Part shown: in pieces, positions 15,823 through 56,753 of the stretch
Layout: every line of letters starts with the position of its first letter
How positions within the stretch are numbered: the first letter of the stretch is position 1
Assembly: GCA_040005235.1 (NCBI GenBank)
Contig: JBDTZG010000030.1
Coordinates: forward strand, 1 to 62,516
Direction: 5' to 3'
Source: Acidobacteriota bacterium
Lineage (GTDB): Bacteria > Acidobacteriota > Thermoanaerobaculia > Multivoradales > UBA5704
DNA: 62,516 nucleotides
Program-made: the position numbers and the translations under genes
The notes under the pieces: generated by a model
The model's input: the letters and a program-made list of their open reading frames with translations, nothing else
Database searches by the model: none
Told to the model about the DNA's origin: nothing

Positions 15823-17310
15823 ATGCCGAAGTCGATCGTTTGGCTGACCAATGCTGCGCTTCGACTGATCCGGGAAGCGCTCGGCTGGGAACAGCGGCGG
15901 CTGGCGGCGGCGGCGGGGGTGTCCCCGGCCACGATCAGCGACTATGAAACGGGCCGGCTCCGCGAGCCTCTGGCGCGCGAACGGCTCGACGAGCTTACGG
16001 CGTTGATGGGCGCTCCCAAAGCGGCGGTCGAGATCGCCCTCGCCGCGCTGGAGGTGATCCGTTCGCTCGCCGTTGCGGGCGCGCGGGACGCCGTCTTTGA
16101 GCTGCCGCGGGAGCTGCGCGAGGTGCTGGAGCTGGCGGCGGCCAAGATCTGGCGCCTGGTGCGGCAGGATTTCTCCGCGGGCGGCCGGGACCTTCTGCTC
16201 GAAGCGGCACGCGCGCAGGCGGCGGTGGTCTGGGAGGCTCTGCGGCATCTGTCGCACGACGGTCGCCGCGCATTGCTCGACCGCTCGCCTGCCCTGGCGA
16301 CCTGGGCCACGGTCGAGCTTCTGGCGCACGAAAGCGAGCGGGCGGCGGTCCGCGACCTGACAGATGCGCTGGCGCTGGGCGAACTCGCCGTCCGGGCGGC
16401 GGGTCTCACCCCCGACCCTTTGCCGCTCCGAGCGGCGGCGAAAGAGTATGCCTGGATCTATTGGGGGAACGCCCGCAGGGTGAAGGGGTGGCTCGCCAAG
16501 GCGGACGCCGCCTTCGCTCGCGCGAAGAGGGAGGCTGAGAGCGCGAGCCCGCTCGCGATGTCGCCGTTTTCCCGGGCGCGGATGTTGGATCGAGAGGCGT
16601 CGTTGCGGCGCGATCAGCGCCGGTTCGAGGAGGCGTTGGAACTTTCGGATCGCGCGTTCGCGGTCGCCCTCCCTTCGGAGTTCGGCATGTTGTGGCACAA
16701 CCGGGCTGCGCTGCTCGAACAGAGTGGTGACGCCGAAGCGGCCTTCTCGGCGCTACGGGAAGCGCTGGCCAACCTTGATGAGACGAGCGAACCTCGGCAC
16801 CTGTGGGGCGCGCAGTTCAATCTGGCCGCGAGCTTGGTCGATCTCGGGCGTGCGGCGGAAGCGGCGCCTCTGTTGCCCGGAGTGCGGGAACAGGCCGAGA
16901 AGCAGCGGGACACGATCGACCTGATCCGCGTCAACTGGCTGGAAGGGCGTGCCGCCTTTGCACTCGGAGATACGCGTGTTGCCACGGCGGCTCTGGAACA
17001 GGTCTGGCTACAGTTCACAGCCCAGGGGATGACTTACGATTCTGCGCTGGCGGCGCTCAACCTCTCCGAGTGCTATCTGACCGCCGGCCGGCATGCGGAA
17101 ACGCGCGTGTTGGCCCGCAAGGCCGCGAAGGTCTTCCGGGACCTCGGGATCGAGAAGGAAGAGCTGGCCGCGGTGCGCCTGTTCCTCGGCGCGGCCGAGC
17201 TCGAACGGGCGACCGCCGAGCAGGCGGGGCTGGCCTACCGGGCCCTTGCCACATATCGGGCGCCGCGAGGATCATTCCCCGCTGCGCCGGATCTGGAGGC
17301 AGGTCAGTGA
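15823..17310 (+). CDS. XRE-family HTH + TPR regulator (putative peptide receptor)
   Basis: N-terminal LRLIREALGWEQRRLAAAAGVSPATISDYETG; helical TPR repeats (WGNARRVKG, WLEGRAA); RBS AGGAG. Confidence 0.88.
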   Translation: MPKSIVWLTNAALRLIREALGWEQRRLAAAAGVSPATISDYETGRLREPLARERLDELTALMGAPKAAVEIALAALEVIRSLAVAGARDAVFELPRELREVLELAAAKIWRLVRQDFSAGGRDLLLEAARAQAAVVWEALRHLSHDGRRALLDRSPALATWATVELLAHESERAAVRDLTDALALGELAVRAAGLTPDPLPLRAAAKEYAWIYWGNARRVKGWLAKADAAFARAKREAESASPLAMSPFSRARMLDREASLRRDQRRFEEALELSDRAFAVALPSEFGMLWHNRAALLEQSGDAEAAFSALREALANLDETSEPRHLWGAQFNLAASLVDLGRAAEAAPLLPGVREQAEKQRDTIDLIRVNWLEGRAAFALGDTRVATAALEQVWLQFTAQGMTYDSALAALNLSECYLTAGRHAETRVLARKAAKVFRDLGIEKEELAAVRLFLGAAELERATAEQAGLAYRALATYRAPRGSFPAAPDLEAGQ

Positions 17311-17771: not shown

Positions 17772-18140
17772 ATGAAGAGGACGGTCAAGCGACCGAAGAG
17801 TGCGCCGCTCGGACCGAAACCGCCGGTCGAGGTGACTCCCGGCCCGGACATCGGTCGATTGATTCGGATGTTTCGGGCTTCCAAAGGGATGACCCAGAAG
17901 GAGCTGGAAAAAGCCACCGGCGTACACCGGTCGAGCCTCTCCGCCTACGAAACCGGCTGGCGCCGTCCACGGCCGGCGACCTTTGCGCGGATCATGACGG
18001 TGGTGGGATCATCCCGGCCGCCGATGTCTCCCGGAGCGGCGGCGGCAGTGGAGTCGCTCGCCGAGCGGGTGTGGGCGTTGGCTGGAGCGGCGTTCGCGGA
18101 GGTCGCAGCGCGGCTGGCGGCCGGCTTACCACCGTTTTGA
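17772..18140 (+). CDS. Stand-alone XRE-family HTH protein
   Basis: IRMFRASKGMTQKELEKATGVHRSSLSAYETGWRRP; RBS AGGAGG. Confidence 0.85.
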   Translation: MKRTVKRPKSAPLGPKPPVEVTPGPDIGRLIRMFRASKGMTQKELEKATGVHRSSLSAYETGWRRPRPATFARIMTVVGSSRPPMSPGAAAAVESLAERVWALAGAAFAEVAARLAAGLPPF

Positions 18141-18268
18141 GATCCGCAAGGATTGCGACGACCGCCGCATGAGGTGAGCCGGAAGAGATAAGAAGTGTTT
18201 CGATGCGGAAAACCGGTGCGCCCGTTCGGCGAAGAGGTGTGCGGGTCGGCGACACCGGCAAGCTGGCC

Positions 18269-18604
18269 TGTACTACCGGTGGTTCGGCCGAGCGCAGAGG
18301 TGATCCGGTCCGTACCACCGGTGCCCTGGCCCAGCGCAGTGGTGTTTCGGTCCGTTCCACCGGTGCTCTGGCCGAGCGCAGTGGTGTTCCGGTCCGTACC
18401 ACCAGTGCCCTGGCCCAGCGCAGTGGTGTTCCGGTCCGTACCACCAGTGCCCTGGCCCAGCGCACCAGTGATCTGGGTCGTCTCACCAGTGCCCTGGCTC
18501 AGCGCAGTGATGTTCTGGGTCGTATCACCAGTGCCCCGGCCCAGCGCACCGGTGATCTGGGTCGTACCAACCGTGTCCTGGCTCGGCGCACCGGTGGTGG
18601 CGGG
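18269..18604. repeat. Tandem array, 8 x 42 bp with 21-bp sub-period
   Basis: Consensus CGTACCACCAGTGCCCTGGCCCAGCGCAGTGGTGTTCCGGTC; units at 18269, 18311, 18353, 18395, 18437, 18479, 18521, 18563. Confidence 0.9.
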
Positions 18605-19159
18605 CTAGTCCTCGGGTAGGCGGTCCAGCTCGGTGGTCTCGGTCAGCCGATCGAGCTCGCTCGTCTCCGAGAGCCGATCGATTTCGCCGGTCTCGCCGCG
18701 GCGGCGGCGCGAGCCTCCCGTGTGCTGGATGCGTTCGAGCGCGGTCTGGCCGCCGTATTTGGCGACGATCCGGTCGTCGTAGTCGTCGGCGACGTTGGCG
18801 ACCGCGGTGATCGCGCGCAGGAGGTCGCGCGGTTCGAGGTCGCGGCCGAACAGCGTGTGGGAGAAGTAGACGTCGTCGTCGACCAGCGAGAAGTGGCCGA
18901 GCGCCAGGTTGTGGTTGAGCTCCAACAGGCCGAGCAGCAGGTCCTCGGCGGTGTCCACCCCCTGGACGCAGTAGGACATGATCCGCACCACCACCTCGTC
19001 CGAGCCGTAGGGCTCGACGGAGATTTCGAGCACGGTCGTGCCGTAGCGGACGTAGAAGTGCCCCTCTTCGGGGTCGCAATAGGGATCGTCGAAAAACTCC
19101 GATAGATATTCGCGGACCTGACGAAAGGTCTCCTCTTGGATCTCGTGCTTTGCGGCCAT
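18605..19159 (-). CDS. YbjN/T3SS-chaperone-like domain protein
   Basis: FYVRYGTTVLEISV, LLELNHNLALGHFSL, VANVADDYDDRIVAKYGG; C-terminal 3 x ETxE[IL]DRL. Confidence 0.8.
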   Translation of the reverse strand: MAAKHEIQEETFRQVREYLSEFFDDPYCDPEEGHFYVRYGTTVLEISVEPYGSDEVVVRIMSYCVQGVDTAEDLLLGLLELNHNLALGHFSLVDDDVYFSHTLFGRDLEPRDLLRAITAVANVADDYDDRIVAKYGGQTALERIQHTGGSRRRRGETGEIDRLSETSELDRLTETTELDRLPED

Positions 19160-19160
19160 A

Positions 19161-19186
19161 AGACTCCCCTCTCTGGAGGGGAGTCT
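19161..19186 (-). promoter_or_regulatory. 11-bp hairpin occluding the Shine-Dalgarno of the YbjN-like gene
   Basis: mRNA AGACUCCCCUC-CAGA-GAGGGGAGUCU-U-AUG. Confidence 0.5.
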
Positions 19187-19383
19187 ACCTGCGAGGGCGC
19201 CCGGCTGCGAGGGGTTGATGAGGTGCCCAGAAACGCCGTTGACACCTCTAGGACCGTGGGCTAACGTTGCGGCATAGCTCTGCCCAGGCGCGCACAAATC
19301 TTTGAACGAACAGGTCTTGTTTCGATTGAACGATTGAAGGATCTACCATTCAAGCTCAAACACCGGCAGCTTCTGCCAGGAGG

Positions 19384-20694
19384 ATGACAGGCATGCGCAG
19401 GCGAGGAATCTCTATCTACGGCGTCGCCGTGGGGGCTTTGGCCCTCTTGGCGGTGGCCGTCCCGACGTACGCGGCGGGATTCGGCATTTTCGAGCAGGGC
19501 AGCAAGGCGATGGGTATGGCGGGTGCGTTTACCGCCCAAGCGGATGACGGATCGGCCATGTTCCACAACGCGGGCGGCTTGGCGTTCCTCACCGAGCGCG
19601 AAATCTCCGGCGGCTTGGTCCTCTTCCACACCACCAAGGCCGAGTTCGACGGCGCGTCGCCGTTTCCGGGACCGAATTCGCACGCGAAACAAAAGACGCT
19701 GTCCCAGCTTCTGCCGCACGCCTATTACGTGCAGCCGATCAACCAGACCTGGAAGTTTGGAGTCGGTTTGGAAGCGCCGTTCGGCCTGACCACGGAGTGG
19801 AATCCGAACACCTTCTCCGGCCGCTACATCAGCACCAAGGCGGCGGTTCGGGCGGTCGACCTCAATCCGACGATCGCCTGGCAGGTCAACCCGAGCTTCG
19901 GCATCGGCTTCGGCGCGATCGCGCGCTTCTCGGACATCGTGCTCGAGCGCCGCGCTCCGGCGGTCAATCCGTTCACGCAGCAGGTGGTGGACGTTGCAGG
20001 GGTCAAGCTCGAATCCGATCTGGAAAATGGCTACGGCTGGAACGTCGGCATCCTGAACAAGGTCAACAACAGCTTCTCGTGGGGCCTCTCCTACCGCAGC
20101 AAGGTGAAGGTCGATTACAAGGGCGACGGCCGCTTGACCCAGATCTCGACCGGCAACCCGCAGCTCGACGCGGTGCTGCGCACCCGTCTGCCGTACGACC
20201 GCGATCTGCCGATCGCGACCTCGATCGAATATCCGGACATGGCGAGCCTGGGCTTTGCGTTCTCGCTTAGCCCAAGCCTGCTGCTCGAAACCGACGTCAA
20301 CTGGACCGGTTGGAGCTCGTTCGACAAGACGACGATCAAGTTCACCAACAACGACCTGCCCAGCTCGACGATCCGTTCGGAGTGGAAGGACGTCGAGAAC
20401 TACCGCGCCGGCCTGCGCTGGACCACCAGCGCCACCACCGAGTGGCGTTTCGGCTACGTCTACGACGAGTCTCCGCAGCCGGAAGAGGCGGTGACCCCGC
20501 TGCTGCCGGACGCGGATCGCAACGGCGTCACCATCGGCTATGGGCACAAGGGCAACTCGTGCAAGGCCGATTTCGCCCTCATGTACCTCGATTTCAAAGA
20601 CCGCACCCGGAAGAAGACCTTCTCCGGCGAGAGCCCGTTCCTCGGCACCTACCAGACCAAGGCGCTGCTCGTCAGCGCGACCATCAGCTTCTAG
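19384..20694 (+). CDS. OmpP1/FadL family outer-membrane transporter
   Basis: AGFGIFEQGSKAMGMAGA..ADDGSAMFHNAGGL plug; PFGL; LPDADR; terminal Phe. Confidence 0.92.
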   Translation: MTGMRRRGISIYGVAVGALALLAVAVPTYAAGFGIFEQGSKAMGMAGAFTAQADDGSAMFHNAGGLAFLTEREISGGLVLFHTTKAEFDGASPFPGPNSHAKQKTLSQLLPHAYYVQPINQTWKFGVGLEAPFGLTTEWNPNTFSGRYISTKAAVRAVDLNPTIAWQVNPSFGIGFGAIARFSDIVLERRAPAVNPFTQQVVDVAGVKLESDLENGYGWNVGILNKVNNSFSWGLSYRSKVKVDYKGDGRLTQISTGNPQLDAVLRTRLPYDRDLPIATSIEYPDMASLGFAFSLSPSLLLETDVNWTGWSSFDKTTIKFTNNDLPSSTIRSEWKDVENYRAGLRWTTSATTEWRFGYVYDESPQPEEAVTPLLPDADRNGVTIGYGHKGNSCKADFALMYLDFKDRTRKKTFSGESPFLGTYQTKALLVSATISF

Positions 20695-24795: not shown

Positions 24796-26103
24796 CTAGA
24801 TCGTTAGGCTTTCCTGGCGCTTCAACCGGCCCGAAACCCGGCGGAGCAGCCGGGCCAACTCGGTCGTCGCCCGCTCGTGGTCGATCGCACGGCGCAGGAC
24901 CAACAGGGCGGCCACCGCCTCGCGACGGATGCCGAGCGCCCGGAACGTCTCGAGGATCTCTTCGACGCTTTCGAGAATTTCGGCCGTGCGGCCCTGCTGG
25001 AGCCAGAGCATCGCGAGATCGAGAGAGACGACGGCCGCCTCGATTGGCAGGCCGCGGCTTTCGAACTCGTCGTGGACTTCCCAGAGGCCCAGCTCGGCGG
25101 CTTCGAGATCGCCGCGTCCGGCTTCGATGCGTCCTTCGAGCCAACGCAACTTCAGCTGGTCGATCGCCGAGCCGCGCTGATCGTAAAGGGAGCGGCTCGC
25201 GCCGATCCAGCGGGCGGCCTGCTCATACGCTCCTGCCTCGACCGCGCCGATCACCAGGTTATGGACGGCGGACAGGGCGAGTGCCGGCTCGCGGCTCGGA
25301 TCGATCTGTCCCAGGCCATGGGCGATGTAGCGGCACGCCTCTTCGAATTCGTTCTCATAGAGCAGCGCGATGCCGCGCTTGATCAGCGCGCGCCCGGCGA
25401 GGTGGCGCTCACCGGCAGCCCGATGCAGCTCGAAGATCCCTTCGAGCAGGCGGCAGGCTTCGCGGAAGCGCCGCTGCGAGATGCGCAGCGAGGCGGTCAG
25501 GTCGAAGATGCGGGCGAACAGCTGCCGGTCGCCGGTGCCGCGCTCGGCGCGCAACAGCGCCTCGGCGAACGCGCTCTCCGATCCGGGCACGTCGGCCGCG
25601 ATGCGCAGGGCGTTGCCCAGCTCCGACCAGGCGCGCGCCTGGAAGTCGGCGCGCTCGGCGGTGCTGCCGTCTTCCGGGCCGAGCGAATCGGCGAGCTGCG
25701 CCGCGAGCCGGGCGAGCGTGACCATGCCGGCCGGGTCGCTGGTGCGCAATGCCCAGCTTTCGACCAGCAGTGTCGCGCAACGTTCGCGCCCTGCGGCGAG
25801 CGGCGAGGAGAGCCGCGCCTGCTCGGCCAGCTCGATTTCGCGGCTGCGTTCCGCGATTTCGCGCCGGGCGGAGGCGACGGCGCGGTCGATCGGCGGATCG
25901 TAGGCCGACAGGTCGAACGTCGGCTGTTCACGCAACGGGTGAAAGACCGAACGGACCATCGGCGCCAGCAGCTCCGCGCAATGCGCGCAGCCCCGGAGCA
26001 GGTGGGCGATGATCGGCTTGCCCTCTCGCGGAGTGAGCTCGGCGCGAAGAAATGCCCACAGCCGTTCAGGCTCCGGGTGCGATGAAGTTTGATCGAGGTT
26101 CAT
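24796..26103 (-). CDS. Zinc-finger (anti-sigma-like) + TPR protein, paralog of 15823 (putative peptide receptor)
   Basis: HPEPERLWAF..HLLRGCAHC; AWSELGNALR; LRWLEGRI; FRALGIRREA. Confidence 0.85.
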   Translation of the reverse strand: MNLDQTSSHPEPERLWAFLRAELTPREGKPIIAHLLRGCAHCAELLAPMVRSVFHPLREQPTFDLSAYDPPIDRAVASARREIAERSREIELAEQARLSSPLAAGRERCATLLVESWALRTSDPAGMVTLARLAAQLADSLGPEDGSTAERADFQARAWSELGNALRIAADVPGSESAFAEALLRAERGTGDRQLFARIFDLTASLRISQRRFREACRLLEGIFELHRAAGERHLAGRALIKRGIALLYENEFEEACRYIAHGLGQIDPSREPALALSAVHNLVIGAVEAGAYEQAARWIGASRSLYDQRGSAIDQLKLRWLEGRIEAGRGDLEAAELGLWEVHDEFESRGLPIEAAVVSLDLAMLWLQQGRTAEILESVEEILETFRALGIRREAVAALLVLRRAIDHERATTELARLLRRVSGRLKRQESLTI

Positions 26104-26186
26104 CGGAATCGCTCCAATTATGTCGGCTGCCAGCGATTGAAGGATCTCACGAAAGTCCCGTTCGAGTCACCAGGTCAAAGGGCGGC

Positions 26187-26483
26187 TCAATGAACGGTCG
26201 TATTCGTCGAGTTGGCCGCGCCGGAAGCGTGAGAGGGATCGGCCGGGACGCCATCCGGATCGATGGCTATGCCGTACTCTCCCCAAATTGCCGTTGCCGT
26301 CGAATGGCCCACCTGCAAAAACGAGTCCAGCCAGCTGGAAATCGCGTCGGAAAATGCCGAGATCGCCGAAGAATCGGCAAATTCGGGCCGACCTCCCAAC
26401 GAGGCCGCCCACGACGGAGCCGAACCAAGGAACAACAACATCATCATCGCGAGAACCAGGGATCCCTTCGACTTGCTCGACAT
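26187..26483 (-). CDS. Secreted pro-peptide, 98 aa, single WGEYGIAIDPDG core
   Basis: GGAGGAG RBS; signal MSSKSKGSLVLAMMMLLFLGSAPSWA; motif encoded at 26250-26285. Confidence 0.8.
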   Translation of the reverse strand: MSSKSKGSLVLAMMMLLFLGSAPSWAASLGGRPEFADSSAISAFSDAISSWLDSFLQVGHSTATAIWGEYGIAIDPDGVPADPSHASGAANSTNTTVH

Positions 26484-26662
26484 CGCGTAACTCCTCCCGC
26501 GAACCGGCCGGTGAAGACCCCCGACGCCCCGCGGAAAAATTCTTCGTTCAAGAGATGGGGTGCGCCTGCAAGCGATTCCGTGACAAGCAAATCGACGCAA
26601 CTTCAAGCGCTTAGGGAGACAGGGCAGAACTCCCCGAAGCAGGGAATTTTGTCCTGCCCCAT

Positions 26663-56084: not shown

Positions 56085-56753
56085 TCATAGCGGAGCCTCG
56101 GCTCCCGTCCGGTCGGCCAGCCGGATGGCCCGCGTTCCCCGGACGCCGCGAAAGCGCGCCGGCAGAGCGACGCCCCCCTCAGCCAGGCGCAGCCTCGTGC
56201 GGCCGACGATCGAGTCGATCGTGTTCGGTTGAAGGCGCCCTGAGCAGGCGACCGAGATCTGCGTGCTGCTCCAGCCGGCAAGCCCCAGGCTCACGATCAC
56301 CACGTCCCGCCCGGGGGTCCGGCCGCCGACGATCTGGCGCCAATGAAGGACGGTCTGGCGCAATCTTTCGAGCGCGAGCAGCGAACGCTCGGGCGACGGG
56401 GAGCGGTCGACGCAGCAGGCCGCCAACCGGTCCGGGCCGATGTCGGCCAGGCCGCGCAGCTTGCCGAAGCCGCGCTTCGCCGTTCGTTCGCTACGGACGC
56501 GGTCGAAAGCCACCCTCTCGCCCACCCGCGCGATGAACGCCGAAAGCCCCTTCTCTTCCCCCTGGTCCGGCGCGAGCCGGCCCGAGGACAACAGGCGGCA
56601 GTAGCTCTCTTGGACCAGCTCCTCGACGTCTTCGATCTGCGGTTCGACTCCGGCGCGCCGCAGCGCGCCGCGGATCGAGGCGCAAAGGCGCGGCGAATGA
56701 CGCGCGACCAGCGCGCGCCAGCGCTCCTCCTCGACTAATTTCTTGGGCTTCAT
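56085..56753 (-). CDS. ECF-like sigma-70 factor
   Basis: Region 2 DVEELVQESYCRL..VAFDRVR..KRG; region 4 GWSSTQIS..NTIDSIVGRTRLRL. Confidence 0.75.
   Translation of the reverse strand: MKPKKLVEEERWRALVARHSPRLCASIRGALRRAGVEPQIEDVEELVQESYCRLLSSGRLAPDQGEEKGLSAFIARVGERVAFDRVRSERTAKRGFGKLRGLADIGPDRLAACCVDRSPSPERSLLALERLRQTVLHWRQIVGGRTPGRDVVIVSLGLAGWSSTQISVACSGRLQPNTIDSIVGRTRLRLAEGGVALPARFRGVRGTRAIRLADRTGAEAPL

Follow-up and report, generated by a model that had tools for sequence, protein, structure and literature searches.

Is the small exported peptide encoded at this locus the signal of the soluble TPR protein encoded beside it, and could that protein act on an ECF sigma factor? The question is raised by the second of two peptide/receptor gene pairs in the window, the 62,516-nt stretch of acidobacterial DNA analysed here, for which the sequence-only reading had proposed one peptide-sensing module wired to two different outputs, DNA binding in the first pair and sigma sequestration in the second. 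Every element described for the second pair was found in place, which confirms the observation on which that proposal was built.

P2 and R2 form a conserved two-gene cassette

The second pair comprises P2, a 98-aa pro-peptide gene with a predicted exported product (26187..26483, minus strand; an ORF with an internal ATG), and R2, whose 435-aa soluble product joins a zinc-motif head to a TPR body (24796..26103, minus strand). The two genes are co-oriented, with P2 upstream and a gap of 83 bp from its end to the start of R2. In the first pair, R1 (15823..17310, plus strand) is an HTH_3/HTH_31 plus TPR paralog, and P1 (17315..17686, minus strand) is a Cys-rich repeat peptide of the same family as P2; unlike the co-oriented P2 and R2, P1 and R1 are convergent. 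The features that had been read in P2, a signal together with AISSWLDSFL and WGEYGIAIDPDG, are present, and the match of peptide cores proposed between the two pairs was borne out, as WAPAGCIFDPHG is located in P1, adjoining the HTH-TPR protein R1, and a jackhmmer search from P2 reached P1 (E 6e-11). Non-homology of the two TPR regions had been named beforehand as the result that would overturn the reading; R2 and R1 aligned with 32% identity over 226 residues (E 8e-22), and because the TPR regions are homologous, the reading is not refuted on this count.

P2 possesses a Sec signal, a Trp-helix and the core IWGEYGIAIDPDG. The predicted signal peptide (residues 1-26; 26406..26483, minus strand), recognized from sequence and hydropathy, is a hydrophobic N-terminus terminating in SWA|AS, with a best 19-residue hydropathy window of 1.81 at residues 9-27 and a cleavage site after SWA predicted by the AxA rule. 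The conserved core occupies residues 66-78 (26250..26288, minus strand), in which YGIAIDP is unchanged in 7/7 genus orthologs, while among 13 orthologs and relatives D75 and P76 do not vary at all and G71 and G78 hardly do. Purifying selection acts on this core, with dN/dS values of 0-0.13 at residues 65-80, compared with 0.25-1.0 in the tail and 0.23-0.41 for the whole gene; the corresponding value for R2 overall was 0.06-0.09. Three more distant relatives terminate at, or within 2 residues of, IDP(D/N)G. A Shine-Dalgarno sequence, GGGAGGAG (26491..26498, minus strand), precedes the ATG of P2 by 8 nt and reads GGGAGGA in 6/7 orthologs and GGGGGGA in the remaining one. A P2 ortholog stands upstream of an R2 ortholog in all seven other genomes of the genus; P2 and R2 are a two-gene cassette in which both genes are real and are kept together as a pair. 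The codon usage of P2 is atypical (GC3 0.70, native codon score -9.2), the only point against its being a gene.

Alignment of the seven orthologous upstream regions defined the conserved blocks TTGTCACGGAAT ... GCACCCC ... GAACGAAGAATTTTTCCGCG (26531..26590, minus strand) upstream of P2, a candidate promoter or operator; the long ones occur nowhere else in the genome and are specific to this locus. The 83-bp spacer between the two genes (26104..26186, minus strand) holds one conserved block, TTCGTGAGATCC (26142-26153), together with the GGAG site of R2; it showed no significant RNA fold (z -0.18), and the consensus scan found no terminator-like site in it. Rfam gave no match within the window, and the consensus scans returned no sigma-70-type promoter there and terminator-like sites at chance level.

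The R2 head is derived from an anti-sigma domain

The N-terminus of R2 had been described as H-x4-C-x2-C rather than HTH, and this proved correct: HLLRGCAHC lies at residues 34-42, and no HTH family of Pfam matched R2. The anti-sigma-like domain, delimited by structure models and profile, spans residues 1-100 (25804..26103, minus strand), with modelled helices at residues 12-19, 25-37, 40-54 and 70-98. Its motif, H34-x4-C39-x2-C42 (25978..26004, minus strand), is invariant in 66/66 closest homologs, and the nearly invariant H9 (26077..26079, minus strand) is a candidate fourth zinc ligand, the matching upstream position being His in 62 and Cys in one of the 66. H9 aligns with the second His of the N-terminal HH of ChrR, which is a zinc ligand in that protein. 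The N-terminal 60 residues gave dN/dS values of 0.08-0.18, indicating purifying selection on the head.

Among solved proteins, the R2-head profile best matched the anti-sigma domains of ChrR (E 3.7e-4) and RslA (E 8.3e-3), and all nine Foldseek matches of the N-terminal model were anti-sigma domains, each of them weak (E 0.54-7). Because the profile finds ChrR and RslA and every Foldseek match is of the anti-sigma type, the zinc-motif head is derived from an anti-sigma domain. VIA placed RsiW on top (Z 5.2, rmsd 3.9, 70 residues), tied with single long helices. Against zf-HC2 (PF13490), R2 scored 11.2 bits, under the gathering threshold of 22.2; 19/66 homologs touched this family at E<=0.1, and one paralog, C100, cleared the cut-off with 24.7 bits. 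An ESM Atlas search with residues 1-105 returned a best score of 0.81, within the range that shuffled proteins reach, and zf-HC2 in 13% of the members of the top clusters, a lead at most. The classification of the head as a ZAS HxxxCxxC domain therefore stood in its anti-sigma kinship, as the profile matches show, and failed in its letter: the motif is not the canonical H-x3-C-x2-C, alignment with ChrR requires a one-residue gap, and the zf-HC2 score stays below threshold. Across the 20 zinc-motif paralogs of the genome, the x4 spacing is found in 18 and x3 in two.

The R2 body resembles peptide-receptor TPR folds

The TPR superhelix of R2 (residues 106-435; 24796..25788, minus strand) was modelled with about 14 helices and a pLDDT mostly >90, and R2 lacks a signal peptide or membrane segment (best 19-residue hydropathy window 1.45). 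VIA matched the body to LGN (Z 25.9), NprR-NprX (Z 22.2), RapI (Z 22.1), phage Rap (Z ~21) and RapH (Z 20.7); Rap and NprR are thus its top bacterial fold matches, and the earlier comparison with Rap was apt. The NprR-NprX alignment covered 295 residues at ~9% sequence identity. As the top matches overall are eukaryotic LGN/Pins proteins, the R2 TPR has a general peptide-binding shape and not a specific RRNPP one; as modelled, the body has a peptide-receptor-type TPR fold, a resemblance of fold alone. The full-length R2 profile found generic TPR proteins alone (kinesin light chain) among PDB sequences, the Pfam matches of R2 were generic TPR families only, and NCBIfam held no family for it. 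A weak sequence match joined the R2 TPR to the TPR region of AfsR, and 2/66 homologs touched Rgg_C (E ~0.01). A complex prediction of R2 with P2 residues 27-98, run without controls, gave a median of 0.30 against a mark of 0.32 and carries no weight on binding either way.

Peptide and receptor families are paired across the genome

Approximately 35 peptide/receptor cassettes are carried by this soil acidobacterium of the Thermoanaerobaculia. The genome encodes 20 zinc-motif TPR paralogs, ~19 full-length HTH-TPR paralogs and 31 family peptides, the latter collected by jackhmmer from P2 over all six-frame genome ORFs at E<0.01. Nearly all of these peptides (29/31) have a receptor ORF no more than 400 bp away, whereas 1000 trials of random placement gave 0.6 such peptides on average and never more than 5. 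A same-strand family peptide gene lies upstream within 400 bp of 13/20 zinc-motif paralogs, and a peptide was found at 18/20 relatives' loci. R2 homologs carry the names Thermoanaerobaculia or Acidobacteriota, and many zinc-head copies were present in every genome of the family searched.

In an unrooted tree of the 39 TPR domains of the genome, which makes no claim on which head is ancestral, the HTH and zinc-motif types were split by a single change (SH-aLRT 99), which indicates that one sensor module bears two alternative N-terminal heads. The shared sensor that had been proposed is thus upheld by TPR homology and by the two heads; its different outputs gain support from the anti-sigma-derived zinc head and from two sigma-coupled paralogs, described below, and stand in part.

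Peptide cores vary between paralogs and are fixed within orthologs, the pattern expected of cognate pairs. This pattern, together with the near one-to-one relation of peptide and receptor families in ~29 cassettes of two gene orders, argues against an alternative that we consider unlikely, in which R2 is an anti-sigma-type regulator whose TPR domain senses another protein or a small molecule, and P2 is a secreted product co-expressed with it (a bacteriocin-like peptide, say, or one for adhesion or the envelope) rather than its ligand. The alternative draws on the many kinds of partner that TPR domains bind, on the LGN/Pins folds and the AfsR match noted above, and on several family peptides whose length, richness in Cys and 3-4 repeats set them apart from the 5-10-residue signals of RRNPP systems. 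The cassettes as a group suggest an undescribed peptide signalling system outside Gram-positive bacteria.

Zinc-head genes are linked to one ECF sigma clade

No sigma gene adjoins R2, as had been noted: the nearest Sigma70_r2 match in the window (56484-56711) is weak, at 22.4 bits below the cut-off, and lies ~30 kb away. The missing neighbour is the rule for zinc-motif TPR proteins and not peculiar to R2. Two of the 20 paralogs, C103a and C103b, are translationally coupled to ECF sigma genes, whose stop codons they overlap, and one more is divergent to a sigma gene within 0.8 kb. The coupled sigmas belong to one conserved clade with 8 members in the genome, three on contig C103 and the others on C116, C25, C17, C12 and C124, and in other genomes too zinc-head genes directly follow sigma genes. 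One of these factors, sigma-A, is 79-96% identical across 14/14 genomes of the family, and in 6/12 related genomes it is preceded by a family peptide gene, which ends 120-170 nt before it; all six such peptides terminate at or near D-P-x-G, five of them as IDPNG or IDPNGG. The family is thus genomically linked both to one ECF sigma clade and to a peptide family.

Upstream of the sigma-A orthologs we found a common TGGACA-N17-TAGCCT with a TG just before it, which looks like a housekeeping-type promoter and not a classic ECF one. A promoter shared by cassettes and sigma genes was considered and set aside: the blocks upstream of P2 are locus-specific, the resemblance was too weak to use, and no promoter motif common to P2 and the sigma genes was found.

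Every genome searched contained more zinc-head matches (16-44) than clade sigmas (3-15), so that most copies would share partners or act otherwise. The latter case underlies a second alternative, as improbable in our view as the regulator with a secreted product: the TPR body would bind the peptide, and the zinc domain of sigma-less copies such as R2 would no longer hold a sigma, having been repurposed for what may be another partner, oligomerisation, or redox or zinc sensing. Such a change would suit the 18/20 paralogs that lack sigma coupling, the excess of copies over clade sigmas, and the fixation of the one-residue insertion in the zinc motif of all 66 close homologs. It is opposed by the purifying selection on the R2 head and by the sigma-coupled C103a and C103b, whose H-x4-C form and conserved hydrophobic positions are identical to those of R2.

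A proposed peptide-gated anti-sigma factor

We prefer, at a confidence evenly divided between acceptance and doubt, to regard P2/R2 as a peptide-gated soluble anti-sigma acting in trans. P2 would be made as a pre-pro-peptide, exported through Sec with removal of the signal peptide, and probably trimmed further to a short piece bearing the I-W-x-E-Y-G-I-A-I-D-P-D/N-G core. R2 would remain cytoplasmic, and its N-terminal four-helix zinc-holding domain, putatively descended from class I (ZAS, ChrR-like) anti-sigma domains, would hold an ECF sigma of the one conserved clade encoded elsewhere (contig C103 and others), with the TPR superhelix as the sensor. Once enough processed peptide had returned to the cell, it would bind the TPR groove, and the head would change its place relative to the TPR body and let go of the sigma factor, in parallel with the freeing of Rap targets by Phr peptides. 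Export, processing and re-import of P2, and the binding of peptide, sigma and zinc by R2, are what we infer from these data.

A FadL-type porin gene in the window shows that the cell has an outer membrane, and it counts against the proposal that the P2 signal would need to cross two membranes and then return. The genome encodes one OppA-type binding protein and two permease genes as a candidate import route, and the cassette itself has no dedicated importer or protease gene. This absence, and the origin of receptor and pre-peptide from one cassette in one compartment, would favour a feedback in which R2 binds unexported pre-peptide and reports secretion capacity rather than cell density; we hold it to be very improbable, as the C-terminal core, and not the signal or pro-region, is the most conserved part of P2, and an Opp-type importer is available. 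That P2 is no gene and its pairing an accident of a GC-rich open frame is scarcely credible, for the negative codon score and GC3 are contradicted by a strong RBS, a signal peptide, a 31-member family, conservation in 7/7 genus genomes and the low dN/dS of the core.

Extending the peptide-gated anti-sigma to the whole genome is a more tentative step, which we rate as somewhat less probable than not: each cell would possess dozens of private secreted-peptide channels, about half ending in HTH repressors or activators and the rest in soluble, sigma-less anti-sigma receptors competing for a few conserved ECF sigmas. If true, the availability of sigma factors would be the point at which many peptide signals are integrated; peptide quorum sensing would then operate in a phylum that bears an outer membrane, and the anti-sigma factor would be the first known to be gated by a peptide. 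Signalling by encoded peptides through cytoplasmic TPR receptors is regarded as a hallmark of Bacillota, and the known controls of ECF sigmas are membrane anti-sigmas, proteolysis, partner switching, phosphorylation and sigma extensions; the two would meet in a soluble anti-sigma that responds to a secreted peptide of its own. With ~35 cassettes here and many copies family-wide, such switches likely shape the behaviour of these abundant soil bacteria. The small size of the cassettes, the short conserved candidate ligand core and the two clear output domains make the proposal directly testable, and the cassettes could yield orthogonal peptide-switch parts. We found no description of such a system in the literature, where the ECF tables (PMC7826278) might list an Acidobacteriota group of soluble TPR anti-sigmas.

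Comparison with known systems

Two features of RRNPP(A) systems were found in R2/P2, a TPR-type cytoplasmic receptor, by fold resemblance alone, and an adjacent predicted exported pro-peptide gene; sequence membership in a known receptor family and a Bacillota or mobile-element host were not. The RRNPP survey treats these systems as belonging to Firmicutes.

Rap-Phr of Bacillus and its phages likewise joins a small exported pro-peptide gene to a cytoplasmic receptor gene, and Rap combines an N-terminal helical bundle for a protein target with a peptide-binding TPR body, as proposed for R2. However, the head of Rap, with Spo0F or ComA as its target, is a 3-helix bundle and lacks the zinc motif present in R2, no Rap-type sequence family was detected in R2 or its 66 homologs, and the host phylum differs from the diderm host of R2. 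The phr gene is located downstream of rap, whereas P2 lies upstream of R2, and peptides of the P2 family carry D-P-x-G repeat cores, unlike Phr. NprR-NprX and PlcR-PapR have the architecture of the HTH-TPR sister clade, R1/P1, and no bacterial structure matches the fold of the R2 body better than the NprR-NprX complex. The PapR and NprX pro-peptides carry the active core at or close to their C-terminus, and relatives of P2 have their core in the same place. NprR and PlcR, however, have an HTH and Bacillota hosts, while R2 lacks an HTH and is remote from NprR in sequence.

The best matches of the R2 head, ChrR-sigmaE (Rhodobacter/Cereibacter), RslA and RsiW, align with it at the upstream His and the H...C..C positions. 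ChrR, too, is soluble and has its sensor at the C-terminus, but this is a cupin where R2 has a TPR superhelix, and the spacing in ChrR is H-x3-C rather than H-x4-C. The sigma/anti-sigma operon form of ChrR-sigmaE recurs in C103a and C103b, whereas most zinc-head copies differ from the ChrR type in having no neighbouring sigma and an attached peptide gene. TPR domains are also coupled to ECF control in ECF42-type sigmas, described as carrying a C-terminal TPR extension fused to the sigma (PMC7826278). There the TPR is on the sigma itself, with no anti-sigma involved, whereas in the R2 family it is on the anti-sigma-like protein.

The P2/R2 pair and its conservation

The gene P2 (26187-26483, minus strand) encodes a predicted exported pro-peptide of 98 residues, read from an ATG at 26483 that lies internal to an open reading frame ending at 26187, with the ribosome site GGGAGGAG 8 nt 5′ of that ATG. 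The P2 N-terminus has a basic stretch, a hydrophobic core (top 19-residue hydropathy window 1.81) and then SWA/AS. R2 (24796-26103, minus strand) is an open reading frame with a 435-aa product, in which residues 34-42 are HLLRGCAHC; it has no membrane-type segment, the top hydropathy window (1.45) falling within a TPR helix. Pfam searches of R2 returned weak TPR families, zf-HC2 below threshold (11.2 bits vs a cut-off of 22.2) and no HTH. The sequence-only reading had described a secreted peptide gene preceding a TPR protein with H-x4-C-x2-C in place of an HTH and no sigma gene adjacent; its coordinates, signal, motif and lack of an HTH were confirmed in the ORF and Pfam data, and no sigma gene was found near R2.

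The genes 5′ of P2 encode PhoU, a histidine kinase, a response regulator and Ppx/GppA, and those 3′ of R2 a secreted TPR protein and a VWA protein. The envelope is diderm, as shown by a gene for a FadL-type outer-membrane protein at 19384-20694 in the window. The genome carries one OppA-type binding-protein gene and two permease genes: at C8:64196-67907 the sole OppA-type (SBP_bac_5) gene is followed by two permease-like genes, approximately 3.4 kb from an HTH-TPR/peptide/HTH cassette (C8:57982-60791).

An R2 ortholog (63–98% identity) is present in all seven other genomes of the genus, each with a P2 ortholog directly 5′ of it. When six orthologs were compared with the window copy, the seventh (63%) being omitted as too divergent, the receptor was 88–98% identical vs merely 46–79% for the peptide, and dN/dS was 0.06–0.09 for whole R2, 0.23–0.41 for whole P2, 0–0.13 for the P2 core (residues 65-80, 16 codons only) and 0.25–1.0 for the P2 C-terminal tail. 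Judged from these sequences, P2 is a real, conserved gene, with the caveat that its codon usage is atypical (GC3 0.70, native codon score −9.2). Because the core is conserved, with YGIAIDP unchanged in 7/7 P2 orthologs, and the peptide ORF of three remoter relatives stops no more than two residues from ..IDP[DN]G, P2 is shaped like a pro-peptide whose predicted active core is short and conserved.

A family of peptide/receptor cassettes

The P2/R2 pair is one of many in the genome. With R2 as query, 45 places were found in the 6.2-Mb genome, and 47 frames matched R2 or R1, the HTH-TPR protein of the first pair in the window (phmmer over every open frame of ≥250 aa). H-x3/4-C-x2-C lies near the N-terminus in 20 of the 47 (18 with x4 and two with x3 spacing); the other 27 lack the zinc motif, approximately 19 of these being full-length HTH-type copies. 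A jackhmmer search from P2 over six-frame ORFs of 40–450 aa recovered 31 small ORFs at E<0.01, all but two with a signal peptide; in most there is a ribosome site of the AGGAG type, and between one and four repeats of the D-P-x-G type accompany a W..L..LW helix. A receptor ORF stands within 400 bp of 29/31 family peptides, compared with 0.6 on average, and at most 5, in 1000 trials of random placement.

Gene order is set by receptor type. Among the 20 zinc-motif copies, the peptide lies upstream on the same strand in 13, downstream on the same strand in one and 1.75 kb upstream in one, and five have no peptide of their own; HTH copies have their peptide gene on the other strand, and in most cases the two are convergent. 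Peptides with Cys-rich loops mainly accompany HTH copies; those free of Cys, P2 among them, mainly accompany zinc-motif copies. R1 (15823-17310, plus strand; HTH_3/HTH_31 plus TPR) is paired in the window with the convergent Cys-rich repeat peptide P1 (17315-17686, minus strand). R2 had been taken for a TPR paralog of R1, and the homology holds: R2 and R1 are 32% identical over the C-terminal 226 residues of both (E 8e-22). An unrooted TPR-domain tree was built from 20 zinc-motif and 19 HTH paralogs (39 in all), omitting eight frames that were short or partial. The HTH copies cluster together in it (SH-aLRT 99), and a single head-type change suffices. The tree argues for one sensor module with two head types.

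Across P1 from R1 lies a short 122-aa HTH_31/HTH_3 protein (17772-18140, plus strand), a regulator-peptide-regulator layout that recurs at several other HTH cassettes. Open frames at 18195-18619 (plus) and 17992-18486 (minus) contain a periodic repeat of ~13 residues, e.g. SAVVFRSVPPVPWP, and therefore a tandem DNA repeat of ~39 bp by the first cassette. A 230-aa protein (18605-19297, minus strand) matches peptide-binding chaperones of the TY-Chap1/YbjN families (E 3.8e-24), and its C-terminal repeat (..ETGEIDRLSETSELDRLTETTELDRL..) falls inside that repeat region.

A 26-nt element, GCGTTGCCCCCGCGGGCGCGGGGGCC, occurs in exactly five identical copies in the 6.2-Mb genome (C20:15313-15338, C52:6493-6518, C81:20623-20648, C126:66790-66815 and C139:21688-21713), each 14–70 nt 5′ of the peptide gene of a zinc-TPR cassette, and is not present upstream of P2. 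CAACGC before it pairs with GCGTTG, an 8-bp inverted repeat lies inside it, and the fold of one copy gave z −1.37. A role as leader RNA or as operator, in a subset of cassettes, is possible.

An anti-sigma-like head

Among 66 close homologs of R2, H34, C39 and C42 are invariant, the x4 spacing is found in all 66, and H9, P10, L15, F18, L19 and L35 are nearly invariant, the upstream His being present in 62. A profile of the first ~67 residues, built from 24 sequences (paralogs and relatives together) and compared with PDB sequences, best matched ChrR (2z2s_B, E 3.7e-4) and then RslA (3hug_B, E 8.3e-3). The upstream His and H...C..C align in this comparison, with a one-residue gap needed; the aligned ChrR residues bind zinc. 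AlphaFold models residues 1-110 (pLDDT 81) with helices at 12-19, 25-36, 40-54 and 65-99. All nine Foldseek matches to it were anti-sigma domains (MucA, RsiW, RslA and RseA) at weak E-values of 0.54–7, and a second structural search put RsiW first (Z 5.2 over 70 aligned residues), level with single long helices. Because of the conserved ligand positions, the ChrR/RslA profile matches and the anti-sigma-only Foldseek matches, we call the R2 head putatively anti-sigma-derived. Filing it under canonical ZAS was rejected on account of its motif spacing and sub-threshold Pfam score.

A link to an ECF sigma clade

On contig C103 the order is sigma-A/zinc-TPR, sigma-B, family peptide and sigma-C/zinc-TPR, and the starts of both zinc-TPR genes overlap the stop of the preceding sigma gene (sigma-A and sigma-C). 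These sigmas pass Sigma70_r2 and the ECF superfamily model; their clade has eight members in the genome, at least two of them without an adjacent partner. Across 14 other genomes of the taxonomic family, sigma-A is present in all (79–96% identical), clade sigmas number 3–15 per genome and head-profile matches 16–44 (E≤1e-4, which may include some classical anti-sigmas); among the 150 such matches listed (245 further ones exist), a clade sigma gene directly precedes 16. A family peptide gene ends 120–170 nt 5′ of sigma-A in 6/12 related genomes examined; the C-terminus of five of these peptides is ..IDPNG or ..IDPNGG, and the sixth ends in a DPWG motif flanked by Cys. Since the peptide gene sits upstream of sigma-A and the zinc-TPR gene follows the sigma, the three form a three-gene unit in these relatives, and P2/R2 looks like such a unit minus the sigma.

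Sigma-A orthologs in 13 genomes, including the copy on C103 (11700-11796), share a conserved promoter-like motif 5′ of the gene, TGGACA-N17-TAGCCT, in which TG immediately precedes the second hexamer; in this genus the motif reads TAGACA ... TACCCT. At C12:32063-33770 the stop of a clade sigma gene overlaps the start of the next gene, whose 346-aa product lacks the zinc motif, matches the first half of the R2 TPR and may be an anti-sigma relative with its ligands lost.

The sequence-only reading proposed one peptide-sensing module wired either to DNA binding or to ECF sigma sequestration. Its architecture is supported; the peptide sensing and sigma sequestration ascribed to that architecture are putative. 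As the most likely mechanism, to which we give about an even chance, we propose that R2 would be a soluble anti-sigma that is gated by a peptide and acts in trans on the conserved ECF sigma clade.

Distribution and relation to known systems

Homologs with a taxon name belong to Thermoanaerobaculia or Acidobacteriota; their annotation is that of hypothetical or TPR proteins. R2 matches at E≤1e-60 were found in 12/12 other genomes of the taxonomic family and in 0/8 from other families of the same order, and 1/60 other genomes sampled phylum-wide matched at E≤1e-20 in the TPR part only; since these sets are samples, the receptor family counts as not seen in the genomes searched, and not as absent. 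Literature searches found none joining RRNPP systems with Acidobacteria, none on Thermoanaerobaculia peptide quorum sensing by title or abstract, an unrelated match only for anti-sigma factor, TPR domain and Acidobacteria together, and nothing relevant among the matches listed for peptide pheromones tied to ECF/anti-sigma control. The available text of the ECF reclassification (PMC7826278) has soluble anti-sigmas in 10 groups and names TPR solely in the extension of ECF42 or on a FecR-like protein, and that of an RRNPP survey frames RRNPP systems as Firmicutes systems.

The full R2 model is a superhelix of ~14 helices (pLDDT 85, mostly >90 in the TPR). Its closest folds are LGN/Pins (Z 25–26), followed by NprR-NprX (Z 22.2), RapI (Z 22.1), phage Rap (Z ~21) and RapH (Z 20.7). 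LGN/Pins, NprR and the Rap proteins bind extended peptides in a groove, and the R2 body resembles them in fold, which is a likeness and not membership.
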